Shown: positions 533 to 40,623 of the stretch, piece after piece
Layout: every line of letters starts with the position of its first letter
How positions within the stretch are numbered: position 1 is the stretch's first letter
Assembly: GCA_016932495.1 (NCBI GenBank)
Contig: JAFGCR010000002.1
Location: forward strand, 8,519-72,518
Source: Candidatus Peregrinibacteria bacterium
GTDB lineage: Bacteria > Patescibacteriota > Gracilibacteria > UM-FILTER-43-11
Direction: 5' to 3'
Length of the DNA: 64,000 nt
Notes under the pieces: model-generated
Databases searched by the model: none
The model's input: only the letters and a program-made list of their open reading frames with translations
Told to the model about the DNA's origin: nothing
Made by a program: the position numbers and the translations under genes

Positions 533-2179
533 ATGAAAAACAAAATCCGATTTTTAATCCCAATAATCCTCCTCGCGTTCGTGTTGGTGCCGAAGGCGTT
601 CGCGGGCGTTTATGACTGCACGGTCGCTTATCCGGGATCGGATTCCACGGACCCGTTCACGTACGACGCCTGCTGTTATCCGCAGGGCGGGGACACCGAG
701 CCGTACCAGGGTATCTCGTGCCGGCCGGAAGGGGAGATTCTAAGAACCGGCAGTTCGACTTCCTGTGTTACCAAGCAAAGTATTCTGGATCTGGCTGATT
801 CTGCCCGCGGTCAGAACCGGGCCGGCTTTAATTCTTTAACCGGCTCAGTCAGTTCATCGTGCCGGGGCGGTTACTGTAAACCATCCGGAAGCAATGTCTG
901 CCAGGCTTTAACCGGCAATACGTGCCCTGCCGCTTTAAACCGGCAGTTGGTCTGCCCGGGTGGATGCGGTGGTTGCAGTGAAGGATATGTTTATTGTGTG
1001 GATAATCAGCCTGCCAGTCTTTTAGATGAAGCAAATCCTGTTGTCGGCGTAACACCCGCCTGTCAGCTTGAAAAAGACGGCAGTACGTATGCTCCGAATG
1101 GCGGGGCGACATGCGCGTCTATGGGGCGTGAAGTGCTTAATCCCTGTACCGGCGAATGCACGAACTGCCCTGAGGGCCGGACGCTTTCCGGCCGCACGCC
1201 GGGCTTATGCGTTTCCTTTGCCCAGCGGTTCATCGAAATCTTTGCGGATGGCTTTACGTCGCTCGGCGGAAAGGCTTTAGATGTAGGGGGAGTTGATCTG
1301 GCTCACATATATTCTTACGGCTCCATCACTGATCCGGTGAATTGGAGTGACACCAGCAAACCCGCCTTTTATGGCACGGTGTTTACCGAAGTGGATCAGG
1401 CCGATCACCTCAACTGGTCGAGCCCCAGTGTTCCGGATGTCATCCAGAACCTACTCATCAATAACAATTACCTGTTCTGTGATGAGAATTATGATTGTCC
1501 GGATGACCTCATTTGTACCGCCGGTTTCTGTAATAACCCTGGGAGCGACGGGGAAGAGGGTGATGCCTGCACCAATTCAAGCGAATGCAACCTTGGATTG
1601 GTCTGCGATATGGATACCGGGATGTGTGTTGATTTAAATGATCCGAACAATACATTAACCGAATGTTCGGAAAACGATGATTGTCTTGGGCTGGGCGCCA
1701 ATTTCACCTGTGTAAACGGTTATTGTCATGATCAGAGCAATGGCCCCGGTGACGCGTGTGTGAACGATTCTGAATGTGCAGCTGGTCTGATGTGTGTGGA
1801 TTTGATCTGTGTGTATAACAATTTATTGGTGCCGATTTCTTATTTTATGGATATCACGGGCCCATCTATCGGGGATGTGAATCCCAATGGCTATCAAAGC
1901 GCGGATGATCTTTGCGAGGGGGTGATCGTTGACAGCCATGTGTGTACAGCGGAAGAAATCATCAACGCTTATGTAATGGACGCGGATACACTAACCGGCA
2001 AAACCGGCTTGGCGTGGATCAACAACGGTCCTCCGGGTTATGTGAAATACGTGACCAACGACTGTAACGGCTGGAATACGAATGTCAGCACTATTTTTGG
2101 TTCAGTGTGGTCGTTTACCGCGCATGCCAGCTTTATTACGCCGTGTAATCAGAATATTCCGTTCGCGTGCTGTAAATAA
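533..2179 (+). CDS. Secreted cysteine-rich protein with CxxxxDCxxGLxCxxGxC repeats and a lectin/endostatin-like C-terminal module
   Basis: Signal peptide MKNKIRFLIPIILLAFVLVPKAFA. Four tandem Cys-knot-like repeats (CDENYDCPDDLICTAGFC, CTNSSECNLGLVCDMDTGMC, CSENDDCLGLGANFTCVNGYC, CVNDSECAAGLMCVDLIC). The C-terminal module SHVCTAEE...WINNGPPGY...NDCNGW...ACCK is paralogous to the end of 1..443. Confidence 0.7.
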   Translation: MKNKIRFLIPIILLAFVLVPKAFAGVYDCTVAYPGSDSTDPFTYDACCYPQGGDTEPYQGISCRPEGEILRTGSSTSCVTKQSILDLADSARGQNRAGFNSLTGSVSSSCRGGYCKPSGSNVCQALTGNTCPAALNRQLVCPGGCGGCSEGYVYCVDNQPASLLDEANPVVGVTPACQLEKDGSTYAPNGGATCASMGREVLNPCTGECTNCPEGRTLSGRTPGLCVSFAQRFIEIFADGFTSLGGKALDVGGVDLAHIYSYGSITDPVNWSDTSKPAFYGTVFTEVDQADHLNWSSPSVPDVIQNLLINNNYLFCDENYDCPDDLICTAGFCNNPGSDGEEGDACTNSSECNLGLVCDMDTGMCVDLNDPNNTLTECSENDDCLGLGANFTCVNGYCHDQSNGPGDACVNDSECAAGLMCVDLICVYNNLLVPISYFMDITGPSIGDVNPNGYQSADDLCEGVIVDSHVCTAEEIINAYVMDADTLTGKTGLAWINNGPPGYVKYVTNDCNGWNTNVSTIFGSVWSFTAHASFITPCNQNIPFACCK

Positions 2180-2246
2180 ACTCAGCGACCGGGGATCAGT
2201 GACCAGCCCTGACCACTAACTACTTAAATTCTTTAATTCATCTACG

Positions 2247-5200
2247 ATGAAAAAAACAATCCCCATTTTATTATTTACCGGCTTCCTCCTCATCTTTCCG
2301 AAAATGGCTTTCGCGGGCCTCAGTGAAGGCTGTTTCCCGGCCGTGGTCTGCGGAACGGGCCAGAACTATTACGCGGATGACTGCAAGCCCCATATCGAAA
2401 CCCTTACCGGCGCCACCCAGAGCTGCCAGTCCAATTACGACGATCCTCCTGCCGGCAAGCAGTGGGCTTTTAACTGCGATAACGGCTGTTACGGGCGTTC
2501 GGATGACGTCGCGGCCGAATGCCCCGGCGGGATTATGATCGCCGGCGACTGTAAAACACTGGCCCGTGTGGTGATTGACGGACTGGATAACAATATATTA
2601 AAAACGTACGCTCTTAACACCCTCACTAAACTGGTTTACGCGGATTGCGGCGACGGCGAATCCCCCATATGGGACAATACCGCCCATGAATGGGTCTGTG
2701 TTATTCCTGCCGCCATGGACCCCTTGGCCCCTTGTGCTGACGGCGAAGTCCTTTCGTGGGATGCCGGCAATAGTGAATGGGTATGCGGACCGCCTAATTT
2801 TACGTATTGGTCTGCCAATCCTGCCGATCCTACTGAAATCTATTACAATGCGGATAATGTCGGTATCGGAACCACTGATCCGGCCGCGAAGCTGGATGTT
2901 AATGGTTCTATGAGGGCAGGATATGGACTGGACAGGACTTCTTATTTTGGACACGCGGCAATTGGATATGCAACTTATAATGGTTATGCCACTTTTGCGC
3001 ATAAGGATCACAATACAGATGCTGATGCCGCATTAGTCCAGACGCCTGGTGGTGAAACTTATCTTAATACCTCTTCTGGTGACCAAATATCATTTACCAT
3101 AGGCGGCACTACAGGTACTTTAGCTATGAGAATCAATAGTAGTGGCAATGTGGGAATGGGCACAACTGATCCCGACTATAAACTTCATGTTGAAAATTCA
3201 ACTATCTACGATTCTGTGGATCCTGACCGTTTTTATGCCGTCGCTGATTCCAGGGAATATTATGGCTTATATGCTGAAGCCAAAGGGGCATCGGGCAATC
3301 TTGGCGCTCCTCCACTTTATTATAATTTTGGTATAAAAGGGATTGCGAATGAATCTAATTCCCATGGGAATTTTGGTGTCTGGGGGGAAGCTGCCAATGG
3401 CGCAATGTTCGGAGCAGGTGTTTATGGAAAGGGTGTAGCTGATTATATGTATGGTGTTATAGGTGAAAGTGAAATGGCCACTGGTGTATATGGCGAAGGT
3501 GCGGACAAGGGAGTCCGTGGTGTTGGTGATAATTACGGTGTTTATGGTCACAGTACTTCAGGTAAAGGGGTCTATGGCGGTAGTTCTTCCGGTTATGGGG
3601 GATATTTTTCCGGTGATGTGTATGTGTCAGATAACCTGGAGGTCAGCGATGATCTTATGCTGAGCGAATATGCCAGACATAGTAACGACGATGATACCTA
3701 TCTCCAGTTTGACACCAACACATTAAACTTTGTCGGAGGGGGGAAGGAATTATTCCGGGCGCGTGGCACCGCGCAGGCCTATGCTTATTTAGGAAATAGT
3801 TCCGATGATATAGATATCGCTTTAAATGATGATTTGTTCGTACGCGGTAGTGATGGCAATGTGGGAATCGGGACACTAGCGCCTGATAATAAATTGCATG
3901 TAGAAGGGGGTTATATCGAAAATTCAGCCAGTGCACCGCGGTTGATTTTTGAGGAAACAGATCAATCTGATAATTTATGGATTATGGGTCAGGACGCTAC
4001 AGAATTTTGGATTGCTCATGACAGCACTGCTAATGAAAATCGTGTTATTCAAATTGAAGAAACCGGTGAAGTGGGCATTGGCACGGCGGATCCTAGTGCC
4101 AAGCTTGATATCGCTGTTACAGGTGATGGTACGGAAGTGCTGAGGTTCAGCACCGAAAGGCCATGGACTTTCCGCCAGCGTGGCACGGGTTCAAGTGCCA
4201 TTCTTGACTTATGGTCCACTGTTGACGGCAAAAACTTTACAATCACATCTGCCGCAAATGATAACCAGGCCGCGCTTTTCGCTCCGCGCAACACCGCTGC
4301 CGACAGCCGGGTTTATCTGGTTCAGGATGGTGGCCGGGTTGGCATTGGAACATCAAGCCCTGGTAGTGTGTTAGAAGTATCAGGTGATACCATTTTGGAT
4401 CATTATGTTCAATTAAGGGATTATGACGATGATACGCTTACCACTCATTTAATCGCCCGTGATGATAACTGGATGTTTTTTAGCGGAGGGGTGGCAATTG
4501 GCACATGGTCCAATGGTGGGCTTGGGGCTGTCGGTACGGGCGATTTAGTAGTCGAAGGAGGCGCCAGTATTGGCACTACAACAGAGACTCATTCACTTGT
4601 GGTCGCGTCAGCCGATGAAGAAACCGTACGCCTAATGGGGCCAGACAGCTATGGCCATGGTGCCCGTTTGAATTTTGGCGATGTGGATTATGTTTATTTC
4701 GATGAATATGAAGATGATAAGTTAAAGATATATGGTGAGGATGGTATATATATTGATACTCATTTCACCAGTGATTACCTGACCATTGATACTAATGTGG
4801 ATGCCTTGTATGATATTTATGTAGGCGATGAGTTGACAGTTGATAATGATTTGTGGGTGGATGATGACATATATCTTTATGACAAAATTTATCATAAGGG
4901 AGATGAAGATACGTATATTGATTTTAATACCGACAATATTGATTTTTATGCAGAGGGTGTGAATACCCTTGATCTAAGAGATGACATTGTTTATTGGCAG
5001 GCAGGAGGCAAAATGACAGCCTGCCCGGATGGCTATACATTAGTAGATTGGGATGGTGTAAATTACAATCCCGGTTTTTGCATAAAGGATTATGGTGATA
5101 TTTTTATTGGCTCCTGGCCTTTTGCAAATGCCGCCTGTATGGCGGAAGGGGCTCATATGTGTGATTACACTGAGCTGTGGCTGGCTTATGAGCATGGTTC

Positions 5201-5378
5201 GCCATGTATTGATATTAATGGTTACTGGATCAATGAATATGTGGATGATGATGATGTTTTATGTGGTAATAAAACCATTTCGTCCTGTTCAGATAGTGAT
5301 ATACCTAATTTTGAAGGAAACTGTGCTGCCCATAGTGGCAGCAGGTCATGGACGTGCTGCATAAGCGCCAACCGGTAG
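2247..5378 (+). CDS. Large secreted surface protein with tail-fibre-like repeats (xVGIGTxxPxxKLxV) and a Cys-rich C-terminal lectin-like domain
   Basis: Signal peptide MKKTIPILLFTGFLLIFPKMAFA. At least five copies of the NVGIGTTDPxxKL(D/H)V motif. Gly/Tyr-rich beta-type region. Asp-rich repeats near the C-terminus. Final domain: AHMCDYTELW...YWINEY...CC. Confidence 0.7.
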   Translation: MKKTIPILLFTGFLLIFPKMAFAGLSEGCFPAVVCGTGQNYYADDCKPHIETLTGATQSCQSNYDDPPAGKQWAFNCDNGCYGRSDDVAAECPGGIMIAGDCKTLARVVIDGLDNNILKTYALNTLTKLVYADCGDGESPIWDNTAHEWVCVIPAAMDPLAPCADGEVLSWDAGNSEWVCGPPNFTYWSANPADPTEIYYNADNVGIGTTDPAAKLDVNGSMRAGYGLDRTSYFGHAAIGYATYNGYATFAHKDHNTDADAALVQTPGGETYLNTSSGDQISFTIGGTTGTLAMRINSSGNVGMGTTDPDYKLHVENSTIYDSVDPDRFYAVADSREYYGLYAEAKGASGNLGAPPLYYNFGIKGIANESNSHGNFGVWGEAANGAMFGAGVYGKGVADYMYGVIGESEMATGVYGEGADKGVRGVGDNYGVYGHSTSGKGVYGGSSSGYGGYFSGDVYVSDNLEVSDDLMLSEYARHSNDDDTYLQFDTNTLNFVGGGKELFRARGTAQAYAYLGNSSDDIDIALNDDLFVRGSDGNVGIGTLAPDNKLHVEGGYIENSASAPRLIFEETDQSDNLWIMGQDATEFWIAHDSTANENRVIQIEETGEVGIGTADPSAKLDIAVTGDGTEVLRFSTERPWTFRQRGTGSSAILDLWSTVDGKNFTITSAANDNQAALFAPRNTAADSRVYLVQDGGRVGIGTSSPGSVLEVSGDTILDHYVQLRDYDDDTLTTHLIARDDNWMFFSGGVAIGTWSNGGLGAVGTGDLVVEGGASIGTTTETHSLVVASADEETVRLMGPDSYGHGARLNFGDVDYVYFDEYEDDKLKIYGEDGIYIDTHFTSDYLTIDTNVDALYDIYVGDELTVDNDLWVDDDIYLYDKIYHKGDEDTYIDFNTDNIDFYAEGVNTLDLRDDIVYWQAGGKMTACPDGYTLVDWDGVNYNPGFCIKDYGDIFIGSWPFANAACMAEGAHMCDYTELWLAYEHGSPCIDINGYWINEYVDDDDVLCGNKTISSCSDSDIPNFEGNCAAHSGSRSWTCCISANR

Positions 5379-5415
5379 TTTTAAATTTAAAATTATTATT
5401 ATTAAATATTTTTTT

Positions 5416-6210
5416 ATGTCCACTCATTTTAAATACACTTTACTTGTTTTCTTTATCGCCTTCCTTACGTTTGTGGCCGGTTACTACGTTGGTCAGGCAG
5501 GGTTGGTAAAAACCACACCGTCTTCCAGTCAGCCGACGGTTAGCCAGCCCACGGTGAACGTGCCGGCTAAAAAAGGCTCCTATGAACAGGGTTACCAGGA
5601 AGCTCTGGATTTCGCCAGACAGAAACTTGCGGAAGAGGGCGCATTTGAACCGCCAAGAAATCTTACAGCTGTCGTTAAAACCGCAAGCGGGCAGAATGTG
5701 GTAGTTGAGTTTAATGCCAGCTTACTGGATCCGTTCGCGGAAGGTATGGCAACTAAAACTATTGTAGTAAGTGGTGAAACTAAGCTTTTCGAAAGAGTTG
5801 AAAAAGATGAGGAACAATATAAAAAAGAATATGCGGAATACGAAAAGGCTATGCAGGCTTATGAAACCGCTCTTGCAGGCGCAAAAACAGAGGAGGGGTT
5901 GGAGGAGCCAAGAGAACCGCAGGAATATGAAGAAAAAGTTTTAGCGGTTAGCGATTTACTGCCTGGTGACCGGGTACGTGTAATCGCCAAGGTGATTGAA
6001 ATGGAAGCGACAGAAGATGGCAAAGAAGCTCCAATGGTATCACCATTTGCCAGCGACAAGGTCGAGGCTGCGGAAGTCCGTTTGTATTCACGCCCTGAGC
6101 CGGAACCGGAAAAAGAATTGCCTACGCCGATGGAAGAAGAAATGAAAGAAGCATCTGAGGAATTACTGGGAGAGCCAGTGGCTGAAGAGGTGGAGGAGGT
6201 GACTCCTTAA
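5416..6210 (+). CDS. Membrane-anchored acidic (Glu/Lys-rich) hypothetical protein
   Basis: 264-aa ORF with an N-terminal TM helix (YTLLVFFIAFLTFVAGYYV) and an E/K/P-rich tail. I recognise no family. Confidence 0.5.
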   Translation: MSTHFKYTLLVFFIAFLTFVAGYYVGQAGLVKTTPSSSQPTVSQPTVNVPAKKGSYEQGYQEALDFARQKLAEEGAFEPPRNLTAVVKTASGQNVVVEFNASLLDPFAEGMATKTIVVSGETKLFERVEKDEEQYKKEYAEYEKAMQAYETALAGAKTEEGLEEPREPQEYEEKVLAVSDLLPGDRVRVIAKVIEMEATEDGKEAPMVSPFASDKVEAAEVRLYSRPEPEPEKELPTPMEEEMKEASEELLGEPVAEEVEEVTP

Positions 6211-6350: not shown

Positions 6351-6641
6351 ATGAAGAAAAAATATCTGTGGCAAATCATATTATTTATTTTGACCATTTT
6401 CTTTATTGCTTATTGGTCTTATGGCCAATTTAAACAATGGAAGAGTGATTTGATTTTAAGTACTTTCCAGAAAGGATATTTTAATGCTATTAATGACCTA
6501 GTTAAAGAAGCAAAAGCCAAAGAGAATTGTATGCCGATTTTTCTTGGGCCGGGAGAAGGCGGCGTTCAGCTTATAAATACTGTCTGCCTCAAAAATGCAG
6601 GTATTGAAATTGAGCTCAATGAATTACCTAAGCATGATTAA
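6351..6641 (+). CDS. Small membrane-anchored protein, paralogue of 6687..6944
   Basis: N-terminal TM helix. Shares ...C(x)...GEGGVQLINTVCL with the neighbouring gene. The ATG at 6351 is preferred over the TTG at 6342. Confidence 0.5.
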   Translation: MKKKYLWQIILFILTIFFIAYWSYGQFKQWKSDLILSTFQKGYFNAINDLVKEAKAKENCMPIFLGPGEGGVQLINTVCLKNAGIEIELNELPKHD

Positions 6642-6686
6642 TTATTCAATCAATCGTAAACCTTTAATCGTTAATCTTAATTCACC

Positions 6687-6944
6687 ATGAAATCCAAATA
6701 TTCTGTCGGTAAGATCATTTTAGTCGTCTGGGTTGCCTTTTCCATATTATATGTAGGTTATACCCAATACCGTTATTTCCAAACATTCATCGCTAATCAG
6801 GCTTACCAAACCGGCTTGAAAGACGCGGTGGTGAAAGTCATCCAGCAGGCGCAGGAATGCAAAGCGTTCCCGGTTACCATTGGCGAACAGGGCGTTCAGC
6901 TGATCAATATTGCCTGTTTACAGCAGCCGGAAGGGGAGGAATAA
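6687..6944 (+). CDS. Small membrane-anchored protein, paralogue of 6351..6641
   Basis: N-terminal TM helix (IILVVWVAFSILYVGY). Shared motif ECKAFPVTIGEQGVQLINIACL. Confidence 0.5.
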   Translation: MKSKYSVGKIILVVWVAFSILYVGYTQYRYFQTFIANQAYQTGLKDAVVKVIQQAQECKAFPVTIGEQGVQLINIACLQQPEGEE

Positions 6945-7319
6945 ATTTTAATTTCAAGGCAAGGAGAACGGCGGCTCCTCCTAGATTAGGAGGAGAGGAA
7001 GAGGCGGTAGACTAAAAAAAGTAATTTTGTTTAACCAAAATACCTATTTGATCTACCCCTCTTTCCTTCTCCCCTGAACCAGGGGAGACCGCCTTCCTCC
7101 TATCCTCTTTGATTTACTACTTCAATTAGTGGAATGCTCTTTTGAGGAGCAATGCTGTGCTGGTTCAATAGGGAAACGCTCAAATCTTTAAAAATCTTCT
7201 CATTCCTTCCCATTCCCTGCCTGCGGATTTTCAAAGATTTGTCCTCACGACGCTGCAAACTTCCTTCGGTCGTTTTTGCTTTGTTCGGACCGCGTTTCTC
7301 GCTATTTACTAAAAAAACT

Positions 7320-7348
7320 TTGACATTCATTTTGTGTACTGCTAAAAT
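7320..7348 (+). promoter_or_regulatory. Sigma70-type promoter upstream of tuf
   Basis: TTGACA (7320-7325), 17-nt spacer, TAAAAT (7343-7348). It lies 36 nt upstream of the tuf ATG. Confidence 0.7.
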
Positions 7349-7384
7349 CCCTCGTGCTATTTTAATTTTTAAATTTAAAATATT

Positions 7385-8578
7385 ATGGCTGAAGGAACCT
7401 TTGACCGTAGTAAGCCTCATGTAAATGTGGGTACAATTGGTCATGTTGACCATGGTAAAACTACATTAACAGCTGCTATTACCGCTGTTGCCGCTGCTAA
7501 GATGGGTGGTATTAACAAAGCGGTTGCTTTTGATCAGATCGATAACGCTCCTGAAGAAAAGGAACGTGGTATCACTATCGCGACTTCCCATCAGGAATAC
7601 GAAACCGCAAAGCGCCACTACGCTCATGTGGATTGTCCTGGTCATGCGGACTATGTTAAGAATATGATTACCGGCGCTGCTCAGATGGATGGCGCGATTT
7701 TGGTGGTCAGCGCGGCGGATGGCCCTATGCCACAGACCCGCGAACACATCCTGCTGGCCCGTCAGGTGGATGTGCCTTATGTTGTCGTCTTCCTGAATAA
7801 AATCGACATGGTGGATGATCCGGAACTGATCGATTTGGTCGAGATGGAAGTCCGCGAGCTCCTGAATAAATATGAATTCCCAGGCGATGATACTCCTATC
7901 ATCAAAGGCTCTGCCCTGAAAGCGCTGGAAAATCCAACCGGGCCCGATGCCGAACCGATTGTGGAACTTCTGAATAAATTAGATGAATATATTCCTGAGC
8001 CGAAACGTGATTTAGACAAACCTTTCCTCATGCCTGTTGAAGATGTTTTCTCCATTAAAGGCCGCGGCACGGTCGCAACCGGCCGTGTGGAACAGGGGGT
8101 TGTTAAAATAAACGAAGAAGTGGAAATCGTCGGCATTAAACCTACCCGCAAAGTGGTGGTGACCGGTGTGGAAATGTTCCGCAAGATCCTGGATCAGGGC
8201 CAGGCGGGTGATAATGTCGGCCTGCTTCTCCGCGGTGTAGAACGCGACGAGATCGAACGCGGTCAGGTGTGCGCCAAACCCGGCAGCATCACGCCTCACA
8301 CAGAATTCGAATGCAAGGTGTATGTGCTGACCAAAGAAGAAGGCGGCCGCCACACTCCTTTCTTTAAAGGCTACAAGCCTCAGTTTTACATCCGCACCAC
8401 GGATGTGACGGGCGCGGTTACCCTGCCGGAAGGGGCTGAGATGGTGATGCCTGGCGACAATGTGAACCTGAAGGTAGAATTGGGCGCTCCGATCGCCCTG
8501 AATGATGGTACCCGTTTTGCTATCCGCGAAGGCGGACGCACGGTCGGCGCCGGTGTGATCACCAAAATTATCAAATAG
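7385..8578 (+). CDS. tuf: Elongation factor Tu
   Basis: 397 aa with [14 protein letters not shown] and NKID GTPase motifs. Full-length EF-Tu-like sequence. Confidence 0.98.
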
Positions 8579-37349: not shown

Positions 37350-39131
37350 CTATTCAATAGCAGGCGTTTCTACCGGTGCTGTGTCAGGGATTTCACCCAG
37401 TCGGATTTCCGGCACTTCACTTTTTGGTTTGATGCGCTGGACGACCGTGATAGATTTCGGGTCGGGAAGAATCTGGATGCCCGTTTGGTCTTTAAGGCCT
37501 TTTAAATCTATGCGGTAGGATTCCAGCGTCTGATCGGTTACACCCTCCACTTCGAGCTGGATCACGTTTGGCTGGATTAGCTCTGTGTAAATCACATTCA
37601 CCTCATCTGTGTTCTCATTATTTTTATTCAAATCGGCAATAGAAAAATTTTGGGGGTTATTGGCCGTGGCCGGATCCATGGGTTCGTTCCAGATAATGTT
37701 GATACGAGTGAGGTCTTCAAACTCCTGTTCGATTGGATAAGGCGGAGTGGTATCAGGCAGGATTTTTACGGCTAGATCTTTATCGTTTTCCAGTTTCCCC
37801 ATAAAAAGCGCCCGATTTTCACGGGTATCAAAATCATCGCTTTCCATTAATTTTCCCTCGGCGGTCTCCACAGTGAGTTTGTAAAAGGCTTCACTGCCGG
37901 ATTGTTTGATGAGTCGCAGCTGATATTGGTCATGCAGAAAGGTGTTGCGCGGCAAAGTATAAGTGTAGCTTAAACTTGTCTTGCTCCCCGCCGGCAGGAT
38001 GATCTTCGTTCCTATCATTTTAAATTCTCCCTCACCCTGTTCCTGGCTGTCTAAGGGCAGCTGAAGCACGTCCGCCCCCTTGGGAATATAAAGCCTTAAG
38101 TATCCTTTGTAATTATCGCTGTACGTATTGGTGAATCCAGGGTAGCGGATGGTCACCTCGGTCGTGATCTCCGGCAGTTCTTTCGTGATATTGGCGTAAT
38201 AATGGACTTCGGTCTGCACGTAACGGTCCGCCTTTTTACTGCCCAGATTCGCCAGGTTTACCGTCAGGAAGTCGCTTCGTTCCAATGGCGCCATGGCATT
38301 GGCCCAGCTTTTTTCAATTAATTTGTTTTCCAGCCGTTCGTTTTTAAGCCACAGATAGATATTTTTATTGTTCAGCCCGTCCACGAACAGGTCACGGGTT
38401 TTAAACGGATGGCGTTTGGCTTTACCGATTAATTGGATGGCCAGTTCCCCCAGAATATCTTTTCGGTTTTCCAGCGCATCTACATCGTGCCGGTCAATAT
38501 TGTTCACTTCGAATTCCAGTTCGCTGAACAGATTATTTTTGGTCAGCTGTTTTCCATTCAGGCTGATTCCGCCGAATTCATCGATCATCTTTTCAATCAG
38601 GCTGAAATTTACCACAATCAGCCCATCCACATCCTTATCGGGGAATTTTTCCTGGTAAAACTTGATCAGTTCTTCGGCTGCGCCCGGGAAGTCCGGATCC
38701 CAGTTGGCGTCGCGGAAGGTATATCCTTGGTACCATTCATTTTTCAGCAGTTCTTCGTGCGGATAGGGGGGCGTGACATAGCTTTTGGTGTCGATGTCGT
38801 ATGAATTTTTAAAGGTCACATCGCCCGGGAAACCCATGAATGTACTTATTTCTCCGTACCCCGTGATAAACCCGCCCCCTGGCCGTAATTCATAATCATT
38901 CTGCAGAATGACCACATAATCTTTGCTGAAAAAGGTAAGGCCTAAGAAATGGTTGGCGAAAAAACGCAGTTCCCCCAGCATCAGGTAAAAGATAAAGAAG
39001 GTCAGAACGATGATGCCCACAATGATCCCGGCCCACTTTTTAACGCCTTTGGGCAGTTTGATCTTTAAAGAGCGTCCGCCCTTTTTCTTCTCCTGTTTTT
39101 GCTGACTGTAAGGTGAATAGGCGTATTCCAT
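37350..39131 (-). CDS. DUF4012-like membrane-anchored protein with a C-terminal Ig-like region
   Basis: N-terminal TM helix. VVILQNDYELRPGGGFITGYGEI matches the NNAELRxTGGFIGSYG hallmark as I remember it. Confidence 0.7.
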   Translation of the reverse strand: MEYAYSPYSQQKQEKKKGGRSLKIKLPKGVKKWAGIIVGIIVLTFFIFYLMLGELRFFANHFLGLTFFSKDYVVILQNDYELRPGGGFITGYGEISTFMGFPGDVTFKNSYDIDTKSYVTPPYPHEELLKNEWYQGYTFRDANWDPDFPGAAEELIKFYQEKFPDKDVDGLIVVNFSLIEKMIDEFGGISLNGKQLTKNNLFSELEFEVNNIDRHDVDALENRKDILGELAIQLIGKAKRHPFKTRDLFVDGLNNKNIYLWLKNERLENKLIEKSWANAMAPLERSDFLTVNLANLGSKKADRYVQTEVHYYANITKELPEITTEVTIRYPGFTNTYSDNYKGYLRLYIPKGADVLQLPLDSQEQGEGEFKMIGTKIILPAGSKTSLSYTYTLPRNTFLHDQYQLRLIKQSGSEAFYKLTVETAEGKLMESDDFDTRENRALFMGKLENDKDLAVKILPDTTPPYPIEQEFEDLTRINIIWNEPMDPATANNPQNFSIADLNKNNENTDEVNVIYTELIQPNVIQLEVEGVTDQTLESYRIDLKGLKDQTGIQILPDPKSITVVQRIKPKSEVPEIRLGEIPDTAPVETPAIE

Positions 39132-39197
39132 AAAATGGGTTAGTTCGAATGGATTATAACTTAAAAATACGGAAAGCTGAAATTATAAAGTTAATAA

Positions 39198-39225
39198 TTG
39201 ACAATTATTTTTTTATTAATAAAAT
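39198..39225 (+). promoter_or_regulatory. Sigma70-type promoter driving the tRNA-like gene cluster
   Basis: TTGACA (39198-39203), 16-nt spacer, TAAAAT (39220-39225). Confidence 0.7.
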
Positions 39226-39314
39226 GAGTATCTGATTCAGCGTAGGATGCGTTCTTTTAAGGAGCGTTCCTATACTGTTTCAGTAGGTTCCGAGTGCTCG
39301 GAATCGCTACTTAT

Positions 39315-39455
39315 GGGGTGGTAGCTCAGTCGGGAGAGCAGTTTACAGCGATTAAGGATCTGACAACAGAATCCTGATCAACATCAGAGGCCTCGGTTTT
39401 GTTTTCAGGTCTCGCTGTAAGCAGGTCGGGGGTTCAATACCCTCCCACTCCACCA
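39315..39455 (+). tRNA. tRNA-Ala-type gene (G3:U70, encoded CCA) carrying a 65-nt rod-like insertion in the anticodon arm
   Basis: Acceptor GGGGTGG/CCACTCC with G3-T70. D arm GCTC-AGTCGGGA-GAGC. T arm GGGGG-TTCAATA-CCCTC. Anticodon stem GTTTA/TAAGC encloses 72 nt instead of 7. See findings. Confidence 0.6.
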
Positions 39456-39524
39456 TTCAACAAAGCCCCTTGGGCGGAATGCCTAGGGGTTGCAGAAAGG
39501 CCGGACGTCAAGTCCGTTCTCATA

Positions 39525-39611
39525 GCCGGGTTCGTCTAGCATCCAGGACGCCGATGAACGGGTAAAATCGTTCAGTCGGAAACGTGGGTGAAGATCCCAC
39601 ACCCGGCACCA
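39525..39611 (+). tRNA. tRNA-Glu-like gene with a doubled (10-bp) anticodon stem, an 8-nt loop and non-canonical D and T loops
   Basis: Acceptor GCCGGGT/ACCCGGC plus ACCA. D arm GTC-TAGCATCCAG-GAC. T arm GTGGG-TGAAGAT-CCCAC. Anticodon arm CCGATGAACG-GGTAAAAT-CGTTC(A)GTCGG. Confidence 0.55.
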
Positions 39612-39613
39612 AT

Positions 39614-39686
39614 TGCCTGGTAGCTCAATTGGCAGAGCGGGGGATTCGCAATCTCCAGGTCGCTGGTTCAAGTCCAGCCCAGGCCA
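39614..39686 (+). tRNA. Cloverleaf tRNA with anticodon CGC but no G3:U70 pair
   Basis: D arm GCTC-AATTGGCA-GAGC. Anticodon arm GGGGA-TTCGCAA-TCTCC. T arm GCTGG-TTCAAGT-CCAGC. Acceptor TGCCTGG/CCAGGCC has a U1-C72 mismatch and C3:G70. CCA is not encoded. Confidence 0.65.
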
Positions 39687-39732
39687 CACACGATCGGGTT
39701 AGCTAATTGCGGCAAAACCCGTCACGATACAA

Positions 39733-39770
39733 GGCGGCTCGTTACCTATCGAGCCGCCCTTTCTCTATTT
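39733..39770 (+). terminator. Rho-independent terminator after the tRNA-like cluster
   Basis: ggcggctcg-ttacctat-cgagccgcc followed by ctttctctattt. Confidence 0.7.
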
Positions 39771-39825
39771 GCATCCATTTGCCTGGCACGGTAAACTGAT
39801 GGCGGTTGATTTAACAAAAAATAAA

Positions 39826-40599
39826 ATGAAAAAATGCATTTGTAATCCATTATTTGATTTAACCGGTAAGGTTGCCATTGTCACGGGTGCCAGCCGGGGT
39901 CTTGGGCTTGCTATGGCCCTTGGGCTTGCTCAGCAGGGAGCGAATATAGTGATTACCGATGTTCTTTCTACCGCAAAAGTAATCAAGAAGGTGGAAGCGT
40001 TGGGTGTTAAGGCATTAGGCCTGAAAGTCGATGTGACCAATCCAAAGCACATTGATGCTATGGTCAAAAAAGTCGTGGGCAAATTTAAGAAAATCGATAT
40101 TCTTATCAATAATGCCGGTGTTTATTACCCCACGCCTATTAAAGATCTGGAAGAAAAGGAATGGGATAAGCTGATCGCCATTAACTTAAAAGGCACCCTG
40201 ATGTGCGCGCGAACTGTTGGCAAACAAATGATTAAGCAGAAGAAAGGAAGTATTGTTAACATAGCCAGTGTGGCTGGCCTGATGGCCTTTGCACAGTCAG
40301 CCGCTTATAACGTTAGTAAGGCGGGAATCATTATGCTCACCAAAACGCTGGCAGCGGAATGGGCGCCGCACGGAATCCGCGTGAACGCGATCTGTCCGGG
40401 CGTTTTTGTTACCGATATGACCAAAGGACTGCTGAAAGATAAAGGTTTCCAGAACATGATCAAAGCCAGCGTCCCCCTGCAGCGTTCCGGCACACCGGAT
40501 GAATTGGCGGGTGCCGCGGTTTATTTGGCCTCTGATGCCGCCAGTTATACCACTGGCCACGCGCTGGTGGTGGATGGCGGATGGACAACACATTTATAG
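39826..40599 (+). CDS. Short-chain dehydrogenase/reductase (FabG / gluconate-5-dehydrogenase-like)
   Basis: VAIVTGASRGLG (TGxxxGxG), NNAG, and the S...YxxxK catalytic set (YNVSKAG). The start is uncertain (39799 or 39826). The listed 39769 lies inside the terminator. Confidence 0.88.
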   Translation: MKKCICNPLFDLTGKVAIVTGASRGLGLAMALGLAQQGANIVITDVLSTAKVIKKVEALGVKALGLKVDVTNPKHIDAMVKKVVGKFKKIDILINNAGVYYPTPIKDLEEKEWDKLIAINLKGTLMCARTVGKQMIKQKKGSIVNIASVAGLMAFAQSAAYNVSKAGIIMLTKTLAAEWAPHGIRVNAICPGVFVTDMTKGLLKDKGFQNMIKASVPLQRSGTPDELAGAAVYLASDAASYTTGHALVVDGGWTTHL

Positions 40600-40623
40600 T
40601 TTACCTTTTAATCGATATTAAAA

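Follow-up and report, generated by a model that had tools for sequence, protein, structure and literature searches.

RNA1 and the closest described tRNA-like RNAs

Few tRNA-derived RNAs with roles other than decoding are known, among them transfer-messenger RNA (tmRNA), the Y RNA-like YrlA and the cell-wall tRNA-Gly species, and each of these has opened a field. The stretch of DNA analysed here (64,000 nt, hereafter the window; contig JAFGCR010000002.1, positions 8,519 to 72,518) is a chromosomal segment from a member of the Peregrinibacteria within the Candidate Phyla Radiation (CPR). At 39198–39770 it carries a transcription unit for three tRNA-shaped RNAs, termed RNA1, RNA2 and RNA3. RNA1 combines a tRNA-Ala body with a bulged rod at the place of the anticodon loop. 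Judged from sequence comparison, it is probably a selected tRNA mimic that does not decode, with RNA2 and RNA3 as supernumerary tRNA-derived genes that accreted beside it.

Bacterial tRNA-Ala (RF00005) shares with RNA1 an acceptor stem with G3:U70, A73 and CCA, a D arm, a T arm and a 5-nt variable loop, but it has a 7-nt anticodon loop and decodes, whereas RNA1 has the rod and its own promoter and terminator. tmRNA, including the mRNA-less form of jakobid mitochondria, resembles RNA1 in its alanine-identity tRNA-like domain, in a long helix standing for the anticodon arm and in not decoding by an anticodon; RNA1 differs in its true D stem and variable loop, with neither pseudoknots nor a tag frame. 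YrlA, a bacterial Y RNA, contains a tRNA-like module (acceptor, D and T arms) and a long bulged helix at the anticodon-stem position (PMC4201824), as RNA1 does. YrlA is circularly permuted, its acceptor being closed and its ends lying at the long stem (PMC4201824), whereas the acceptor of RNA1 is open and ends in ACCA. Against the YrlA model (RF02553), whose gathering score is 69, RNA1 reached about 14 bits with an E of about 8, and for the Ro (rsr) gene no TROVE domain was found among the 30 window open reading frames (ORFs) scanned. The tRNA-Other of Bacillus cereus is reportedly tRNA-derived, not an ordinary decoder and perhaps regulatory, like RNA1; unlike RNA1, it is said to have an anticodon arm of normal size, with nothing comparable to the rod. 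The locus as a whole resembles supernumerary tRNA arrays such as the Anabaena trn operon (PMC8421152), which combine one promoter, a patchy distribution and non-canonical or pseudogene members. The arrays described here differ from the Anabaena operon in being very small (1–4 genes) and in their position at a hotspot on the chromosome of a CPR genome of roughly 1 Mb, and several of their members have disabled or shifted anticodon arms on structurally intact bodies.

In a permissive scan RNA1 matched the Rfam tRNA model (RF00005) at 40.3 bits, above the gathering score of 29, the match being interrupted at the anticodon loop by 71 nt of inserted sequence. Its minimum-free-energy fold was a cloverleaf with a long arm (z = −5.8). 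The acceptor is a 7-bp stem with G3:U70, A73 and an encoded CCA, the D arm (GCUCAG..GGGAGAGC) includes G18-G19, the variable loop is 5 nt and the loop of the T arm reads UUCAAUA. The nucleotides of the L-shape (G18-G19 with U54-U55-C56...A58) could be read from the sequences of RNA1 and RNA3, and not from that of RNA2. The alanine acceptor identity elements of RNA1 (G3:U70 and A73) were invariant in four homologues, charging itself being a prediction. A functional decoder would have an anticodon loop of 7 nt, with U33 and with a purine at 37; in its place RNA1 has the 72-nt rod. RNA1 cannot decode, because its anticodon loop is absent.

Conservation of RNA1 and alternatives to a tRNA mimic

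Related loci were fetched by way of homologues of the adjacent DUF4012 protein, which gave 12 related contigs (referred to by L numbers). The unit was identical in L001. Homologous units stood at the same position in L128, L134 (with an identical array in L136) and L137, where the DUF4012 protein shared 85%, 77% and 74% amino acid identity, respectively, with that of the window. The features of the window unit were as follows:

39198–39225, plus strand: sigma-70-type promoter (TTGACA-16-TAAAAT), 11 of 12 matches
39232–39314, plus strand: structured leader with two hairpins, one of them at 39288–39303; fold z = −5.5; not conserved
39315–39455, plus strand: RNA1 (39315–39452 plus CCA), putative tRNA-Ala-derived mimic, from Rfam, fold and homologues
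39346–39417, plus strand: bulged rod of RNA1, 72 nt, replacing the anticodon loop
39464–39491, plus strand: hairpin A, 3' of RNA1, common to the window and L128 only
39494–39685, plus strand: lineage-specific block of 192 nt (hairpin 2, RNA2 and RNA3), missing from the homologous L128 unit
39525–39611, plus strand: RNA2, Glu-like cloverleaf; fold z = −4.9; no Rfam tRNA match
39614–39686, plus strand: RNA3, tRNA with a body of Ile2/Met type and anticodon CGC, from ARAGORN and Rfam
39687–39732, plus strand: conserved 3' tail with hairpin B (39695–39721), motifs common to four units
39733–39768, plus strand: intrinsic terminator, a stem-loop (39733–39758) followed by a T-rich tail

The original prediction for this locus had described a promoter-to-terminator unit with three tRNA-shaped RNAs, and this description was borne out by the promoter, by the terminator and by the lack of any ORF longer than 68 aa overlapping the unit. 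A dedicated non-coding RNA operon is supported. The leader hairpin that had been placed at 39289–39304 lies one position upstream.

The promoter, RNA1 or its homologue, the terminator and a 3' tail whose hairpin B covaries were common to four units (window, L128, L134 and L137). The promoter stretch from −35 to about +10 was nearly invariant. Each tail contained the motifs GATCGG, a stem and CCGTCA, and the stems covaried; the terminator (GGCGG..CCGCC stem and T-run) kept its position, with differing stem interiors in the relatives. The leader measured 85 nt in the window, about 175 nt in L128, where it was largely different, and less than 15 nt in L134 and L137.

RNA1 of the window and of L128 differed at 15 of 141 positions (89.4% identical), without indels. 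Two pairs changed on both sides (acceptor G6:C67 to A:U, and an A:U to G:C in the rod), five were altered on one side by way of G:U, and the sole broken pair was 27:43 at the base of the anticodon stem. Within the rod, the A:U to G:C change and several changes of G:U type caused no disruption at all. The homologues in L134 and L137 differed at 5 of 133 positions (96.2% identical), again without indels, and all five changes were structure-neutral. By comparison, four-fold degenerate sites of the DUF4012 gene were 35% (window versus L128) and 46% (L134 versus L137) identical, which is essentially saturated, while the 3' tail was about 60% identical and the leaders were separated by large indels. 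In an alignment of the four RNA1 sequences 98.8% of the cloverleaf cells were paired, against 55–65% in slid controls; five pairs changed on both sides and G3:U70 never varied. RNA1, including its rod, is conserved far above both the neutral expectation and its own flanks, a pattern pointing to strong purifying selection. This conservation relative to neutral sites and flanks argues against simple decay and against a recent transfer of the whole unit.

The encoded CCA was present in RNA1 of the window, L128 and L134. The L137 homologue (1544–1676, minus strand) was without it, CTCCA being followed directly by TATGATCGG, and would need a CCA-adding enzyme.

Decay was weighed for the unit as a whole and for its parts. 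In a recombination hotspot, supernumerary tRNA genes acquired horizontally could be decaying and have left the unit as a remnant without function, and several observations fit this: gene content between malate dehydrogenase and DUF4012 differed in almost every relative, the unit was patchy, RNA3 combines a derived 1:72 mismatch with an orphan identity, and RNA2 has lost its elbow. Horizontally spread tRNA arrays with pseudogenes are also known (PMC8421152). RNA1, however, was 89–96% identical where neutral sites were 35–46% identical, its substitutions keep the pairing, the promoter hardly varied, and RNA2 retains about 28 bp of stems despite rewritten loops, which is not a pattern of random decay. 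Decay of the whole unit is unlikely. For RNA2 and RNA3 taken alone it is plausible, if somewhat short of an even chance, and for RNA1 it is not. The earlier view that the three look unlike independent pseudogenes is supported for RNA1, which was conserved beyond neutral sites with compensatory changes.

Across the RNA1 homologues the rod measured 67–72 nt and followed one design: the anticodon stem is extended to 9–11 bp, a 5–6-nt bulge follows on the 5' strand, and the distal part pairs over about 17 bp more, with a single mismatch, and has an apical region of 17–21 nt. In sequence the rods of the window/L128 type bear no relation to those of the L134/L137 type, and the folded architecture was identical in both. 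A k-turn reading of the rod was rejected, the motif being absent, and neither copies of the rod nor antisense targets were found at significant levels elsewhere in the window. The apical regions contained GC-rich palindromes (AGGCCU, GGCGCC and CCGG, the last in L019, a Parcubacteria contig described below) that are candidate kissing-dimer sites and are compatible with chance and hairpin symmetry.

This architecture bears on whether RNA1 and RNA2 are tRNA genes with a new type of intervening sequence, excised (e.g., by RNase III and a ligase) to give tRNA-Ala and tRNA-Glu decoders. Insertions in rRNA genes are a known trait of CPR bacteria, and L019 has a similar tRNA-Ala-like element within an intervening sequence of 23S rRNA. 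On its 3' side the window/L128 rod ends in CUCGCUG beside the anticodon stem, readable as an alanine CGC loop, and RNA2 retains UUCA beside its stem. All excisions leaving a 5-bp stem and a 7-nt loop were enumerated by hand. For the L134/L137 type they yielded only UUU, GUU or GAU and never NGC, the window-type product CUCGCUG (CGC) would carry U37, and RNA2 was unable to regain a 7-nt loop. The rod contained no bulge-helix-bulge motif, its single 5–6-nt bulge being on one strand only, and no group I intron match in Rfam at E up to 10; it is itself strongly constrained, unlike typical intervening sequences. Since none of the excisions would give back an alanine anticodon across all the homologues, the insertion in RNA1 is not an intron that restores a tRNA-Ala decoder, and spliced decoders are very unlikely for the locus.

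A drastically reduced tmRNA-like ribosome-rescue RNA, charged with alanine and consisting of a long helix without a tag-coding region, was also considered. Jakobid mitochondria offer a precedent in tmRNAs described as having lost the mRNA-like region (reference 116, as cited in PMC6514570). RNA1 has G3:U70 and agrees with tmRNA in topology (acceptor, long closing helix, insertion, T arm, ACCA), and the Rfam permuted-tmRNA model weakly matched its acceptor and T arm (21.6 bits, E = 0.028). That score nevertheless compares with a gathering score of 47, ARAGORN called no tmRNA, and no mt-tmRNA match was reported. RNA1 has the full D stem and variable loop that tmRNA lacks, forms no pseudoknot, and has no reading frame conserved between the window, L128 and L134. 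The covarying 6:67 pair shows the acceptor stem to be closed by the 5' strand of RNA1 itself, and the absence of the gene from close relatives does not suit a core rescue factor. A reduced rescue RNA is thus very improbable. A permuted tmRNA was rejected on the same pair: the 5' strand of RNA1 covaries with its 3' strand, and the downstream GGGGUUG does not.

The unequal conservation of RNA1 and its flanks concerns a further possibility, that the tRNA-like parts are processing handles ("punctuation") at which RNase P and RNase Z cut to free functional flanking RNAs, e.g., the 3' tail. Tail motifs persisted in L133 without RNA1, and for the capped-anticodon tRNA-Ala-like element in the L019 23S rRNA gene a cleavage signal is the only obvious role. 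RNA1 including the rod (89%) was, however, far more conserved than the tail (60%) or the leader, and a mere handle needs neither a conserved rod nor an invariant G3:U70. A role confined to punctuation is quite improbable. The reading of RNA1 as a mimic was ranked first on account of its rod and G3:U70, which are better conserved than the flanks; aminoacyl donor, decoy or sequestering RNA, and processing handle are all candidate roles.

Several points weigh against a selected mimic. The RNA1 comparators were four distinct sequences from one narrow clade, and no partner protein gene adjoined the unit. The unit was missing at the locus in six relatives (L002, L003/L004, L005/L006, L127, L129/L130 and L135), which implies that RNA1 is dispensable or located elsewhere in those genomes, and L133 kept only the tail of the unit, with no RNA1. 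For RNA2 and RNA3 the sole comparator was the identical copy in L001, which gives no measure of selection on either. The comparison with relatives proposed in the original prediction therefore had a mixed outcome: absence at six loci, and covariation with strong constraint where the unit was retained.

As a selected mimic, RNA1 would derive from a tRNA-Ala gene, retaining everything above the anticodon stem, and would be transcribed from the strong conserved promoter. RNase P would cut its 5' side, and 3' processing would expose or add CCA. Alanyl-tRNA synthetase (AlaRS) requires only an acceptor helix with G3:U70, so AlaRS very likely charges RNA1 via G3:U70 and A73. With no anticodon loop, RNA1 must act away from normal decoding, possibly as an aminoacyl donor, or as a decoy or adaptor with a specific partner bound to its rod. 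RNA2 and RNA3 would be a later addition, one 192-nt block inserted between RNA1 and the tail and drawn from the pool of fast-evolving supernumerary tRNA-derived genes that fills the locus in sister lineages. Within this block, RNA3 would represent an anticodon-shifted Ile2/Met-type tRNA without an obvious synthetase, and RNA2 a Glu-type body with its anticodon sealed in a hairpin and its elbow lost.

A bolder proposal, offered tentatively and as doubtful, is that RNA1 represents a new class of bacterial tRNA mimic, in which an alanine-chargeable L-shaped body carries a selectively maintained, lineage-swappable rod and, through a partner, delivers or sequesters alanine or a tRNA-binding factor. 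If so, RNA1 and the arrays with disabled anticodon loops would point to a CPR-specific use of the "top half" of tRNA outside decoding, with possible roles as decoys in defence or counter-defence, in aminoacylation of the cell envelope, or as a minimal ribosome-rescue factor. RNA1 is a natural "tRNA scaffold with a cargo hairpin", maintained by strong purifying selection in a symbiont-type genome of about 1 Mb with little room for junk. Were it charged and stable, it would provide a testable aminoacyl-RNA function uncoupled from decoding in the CPR.

RNA2, RNA3 and the hypervariable locus

Alignment of the window with L128 left a single gap in L128, between GGGGTTGC and ACACACGATCGG, corresponding to the 192-nt block at 39494–39685. 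Among the fetched loci, the window and L001, an identical copy, were alone in having the RNA2/RNA3 block; RNA1 stood alone within the units of L128, L134 and L137, from which RNA2 and RNA3 were absent. RNA2 and RNA3 are a lineage-specific insertion and not part of an ancestral trio with RNA1; the functional module suggested for the three RNAs is not supported as a co-evolved one. The 69-nt spacer after RNA1 does have two hairpins, as had been described, but the second belongs to the RNA2/RNA3 block and not to RNA1.

RNA2 folded as a four-arm cloverleaf with an ACCA tail and about 28 intact stem pairs (z = −4.9), and it did not match the Rfam tRNA model at E up to 10, also in a 96-nt search. 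Its D arm (GUCUAG..CAGGAC) is of Glu type, the variable region measures 4 nt and the anticodon stem 5 bp. A 19-nt hairpin pairing with a residual UUC replaces the anticodon loop, and RNA2, without that loop, cannot decode. The D loop (AGCAUCCA) is without GG and the loop at the T position is UGAAGAU, so that no T-loop/D-loop elbow is formed; the good T arm earlier ascribed to each RNA is, in RNA2, an arm without a T loop. Homologues of RNA2 were found in none of the fetched loci, and a blast search of E. coli gave no match. Its intact stems beside rewritten loops argue against random decay.

RNA3 matched the Rfam tRNA model at 58 bits in a scan at the gathering threshold and was called Ala(CGC) by ARAGORN. 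Its anticodon loop (UUCGCAA) is the only decoder-type loop among the three RNAs. The statement that none of them is a canonical decoder was confirmed for RNA1 and RNA2, which have no anticodon loop, and needs amending for RNA3, whose structure departs from the canonical form only in a U1·C72 mismatch and in ending without an encoded CCA. The mismatch is derived, because L134 has G1:C72. At the alanine position RNA3 has C3:G70 in place of G3:U70. The best E. coli match was an annotated tRNA-Ile (77.8% identity over 72 nt), and the phage matches were annotated as tRNA-Met or tRNA-Ile; on the basis of these best matches, its body is of CAU (Ile2/Met) type. RNA3 aligned without gaps with the first tRNA (slot a) of four-gene arrays located immediately upstream of the L134 and L137 RNA1 units. 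All three have the acceptor stem and D arm in common, and their anticodon and T stems differed and stayed paired. Anticodons in this body were CGC (window), CUA (L134) and CAU (L137). From known identity rules RNA3 would suit neither MetRS nor IleRS, and CGC with C3:G70 would not suit AlaRS either. The alanine "complementarity" suggested for RNA1 and RNA3 looks coincidental, given that the RNA3 homologues carry CAU or CUA on an Ile2/Met-type body.

The interval between DUF4012 and malate dehydrogenase (window 39132–40623, with equivalents in L002, L003–L006, L127–L130 and L133–L137) was a hotspot of gene content. It contained only a dehydrogenase in L002 and L133, nothing in L005/L006 and L135, unrelated small ORFs in L127, L129/L130 and L003/L004, and RNA genes in the others. 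In L134, L136 and L137 a 2-hydroxyacid dehydrogenase takes the position of malate dehydrogenase. The variable neighbouring ORFs (78–311 aa) gave nothing above the Pfam curated cut-off and no PADLOC match. The unit was patchy in its presence and the locus hypervariable, two of the features by which horizontally moving or supernumerary tRNA arrays would be recognised, along with redundancy with housekeeping tRNAs. Fast-evolving, putatively supernumerary tRNA genes occupy this hotspot.

The four-gene tRNA arrays adjoining the RNA1 unit (L134 2085–2389, also in L136, and L137 1824–2128; minus strand) have their own promoter and terminator. Orthologous slots differed in the anticodon arm: CUA versus CAU, Thr GGU versus an 8-nt loop "cggt", CCG with a 4-bp anticodon stem versus a 6-nt loop, and Phe GAA versus Val GAC in one body. 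C33 was present in the array tRNAs with CUA (L134), CCG (L134) and GAC (L137). The bodies remained paired, with compensatory changes in the D stem, and the array tRNAs of L134 and L137 were without encoded CCA. These mini-arrays, in which CAU, CUA, CGC or 6- and 8-nt loops occupy orthologous bodies, are a compact natural example of rapid anticodon-arm turnover.

Remnants were seen at two loci. In L133 (2240–2345, minus strand) a GC-rich perfect hairpin was followed by the tail motifs (GTGATCGG...), and in L002 (3900–3960, minus strand) a terminator-like hairpin and T-run occupied the position of the window terminator. Both remnants suggest a past loss of RNA genes.

Genomic setting and related elements elsewhere

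Housekeeping genes flank the locus in the window (DnaJ, NrdR, EF-Tu, V-ATPase, GluRS and MurB), and homologues of the adjacent DUF4012 protein carry the names Peregrinibacteria or Patescibacteria. The unit lies between the divergent DUF4012 gene (37350–39131, minus strand) and a short-chain dehydrogenase gene (39826–40599). The mechanical ORF of the dehydrogenase uses a TTG at 39769, in the terminator tail, and public assemblies use the ATG at 39826 (257 aa). Elsewhere in the window, three consecutive large ORFs at 533–6210 (548, 1043 and 264 aa) had no Pfam match at E up to 1e-5.

A phage or plasmid origin was not favoured by the searches. Three specific patterns found nothing in IMG/VR, one generic pattern retrieved only tandem tRNA-Ala/tRNA-Val pairs, and blastn against phages gave generic tRNA similarity only. 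A metagenome scan with the rod motif specific to the window type recovered only the L128 contig and one chance match. Genome contigs were also scanned for a tRNA-Ala frame with a long gap; among the matches listed, most were archaeal intron-containing tRNAs, tandem tRNAs and att-type partial duplications, and the sole relevant case was L019.

L019 (Parcubacteria contig CAJAQL010000022.1) contained a 127-nt tRNA-Ala-like element at 7744–7867 with G3:U70 and ACCA (Rfam tRNA, 47.8 bits), in which a near-perfect long hairpin stands in place of the anticodon loop. The element lies inside a bacterial 23S rRNA gene (positions 1–1287 of the large-subunit rRNA model correspond to 6407–8000), within a helix-flanked intervening sequence, and it may be an RNase P/RNase Z cleavage signal that fragments the rRNA.

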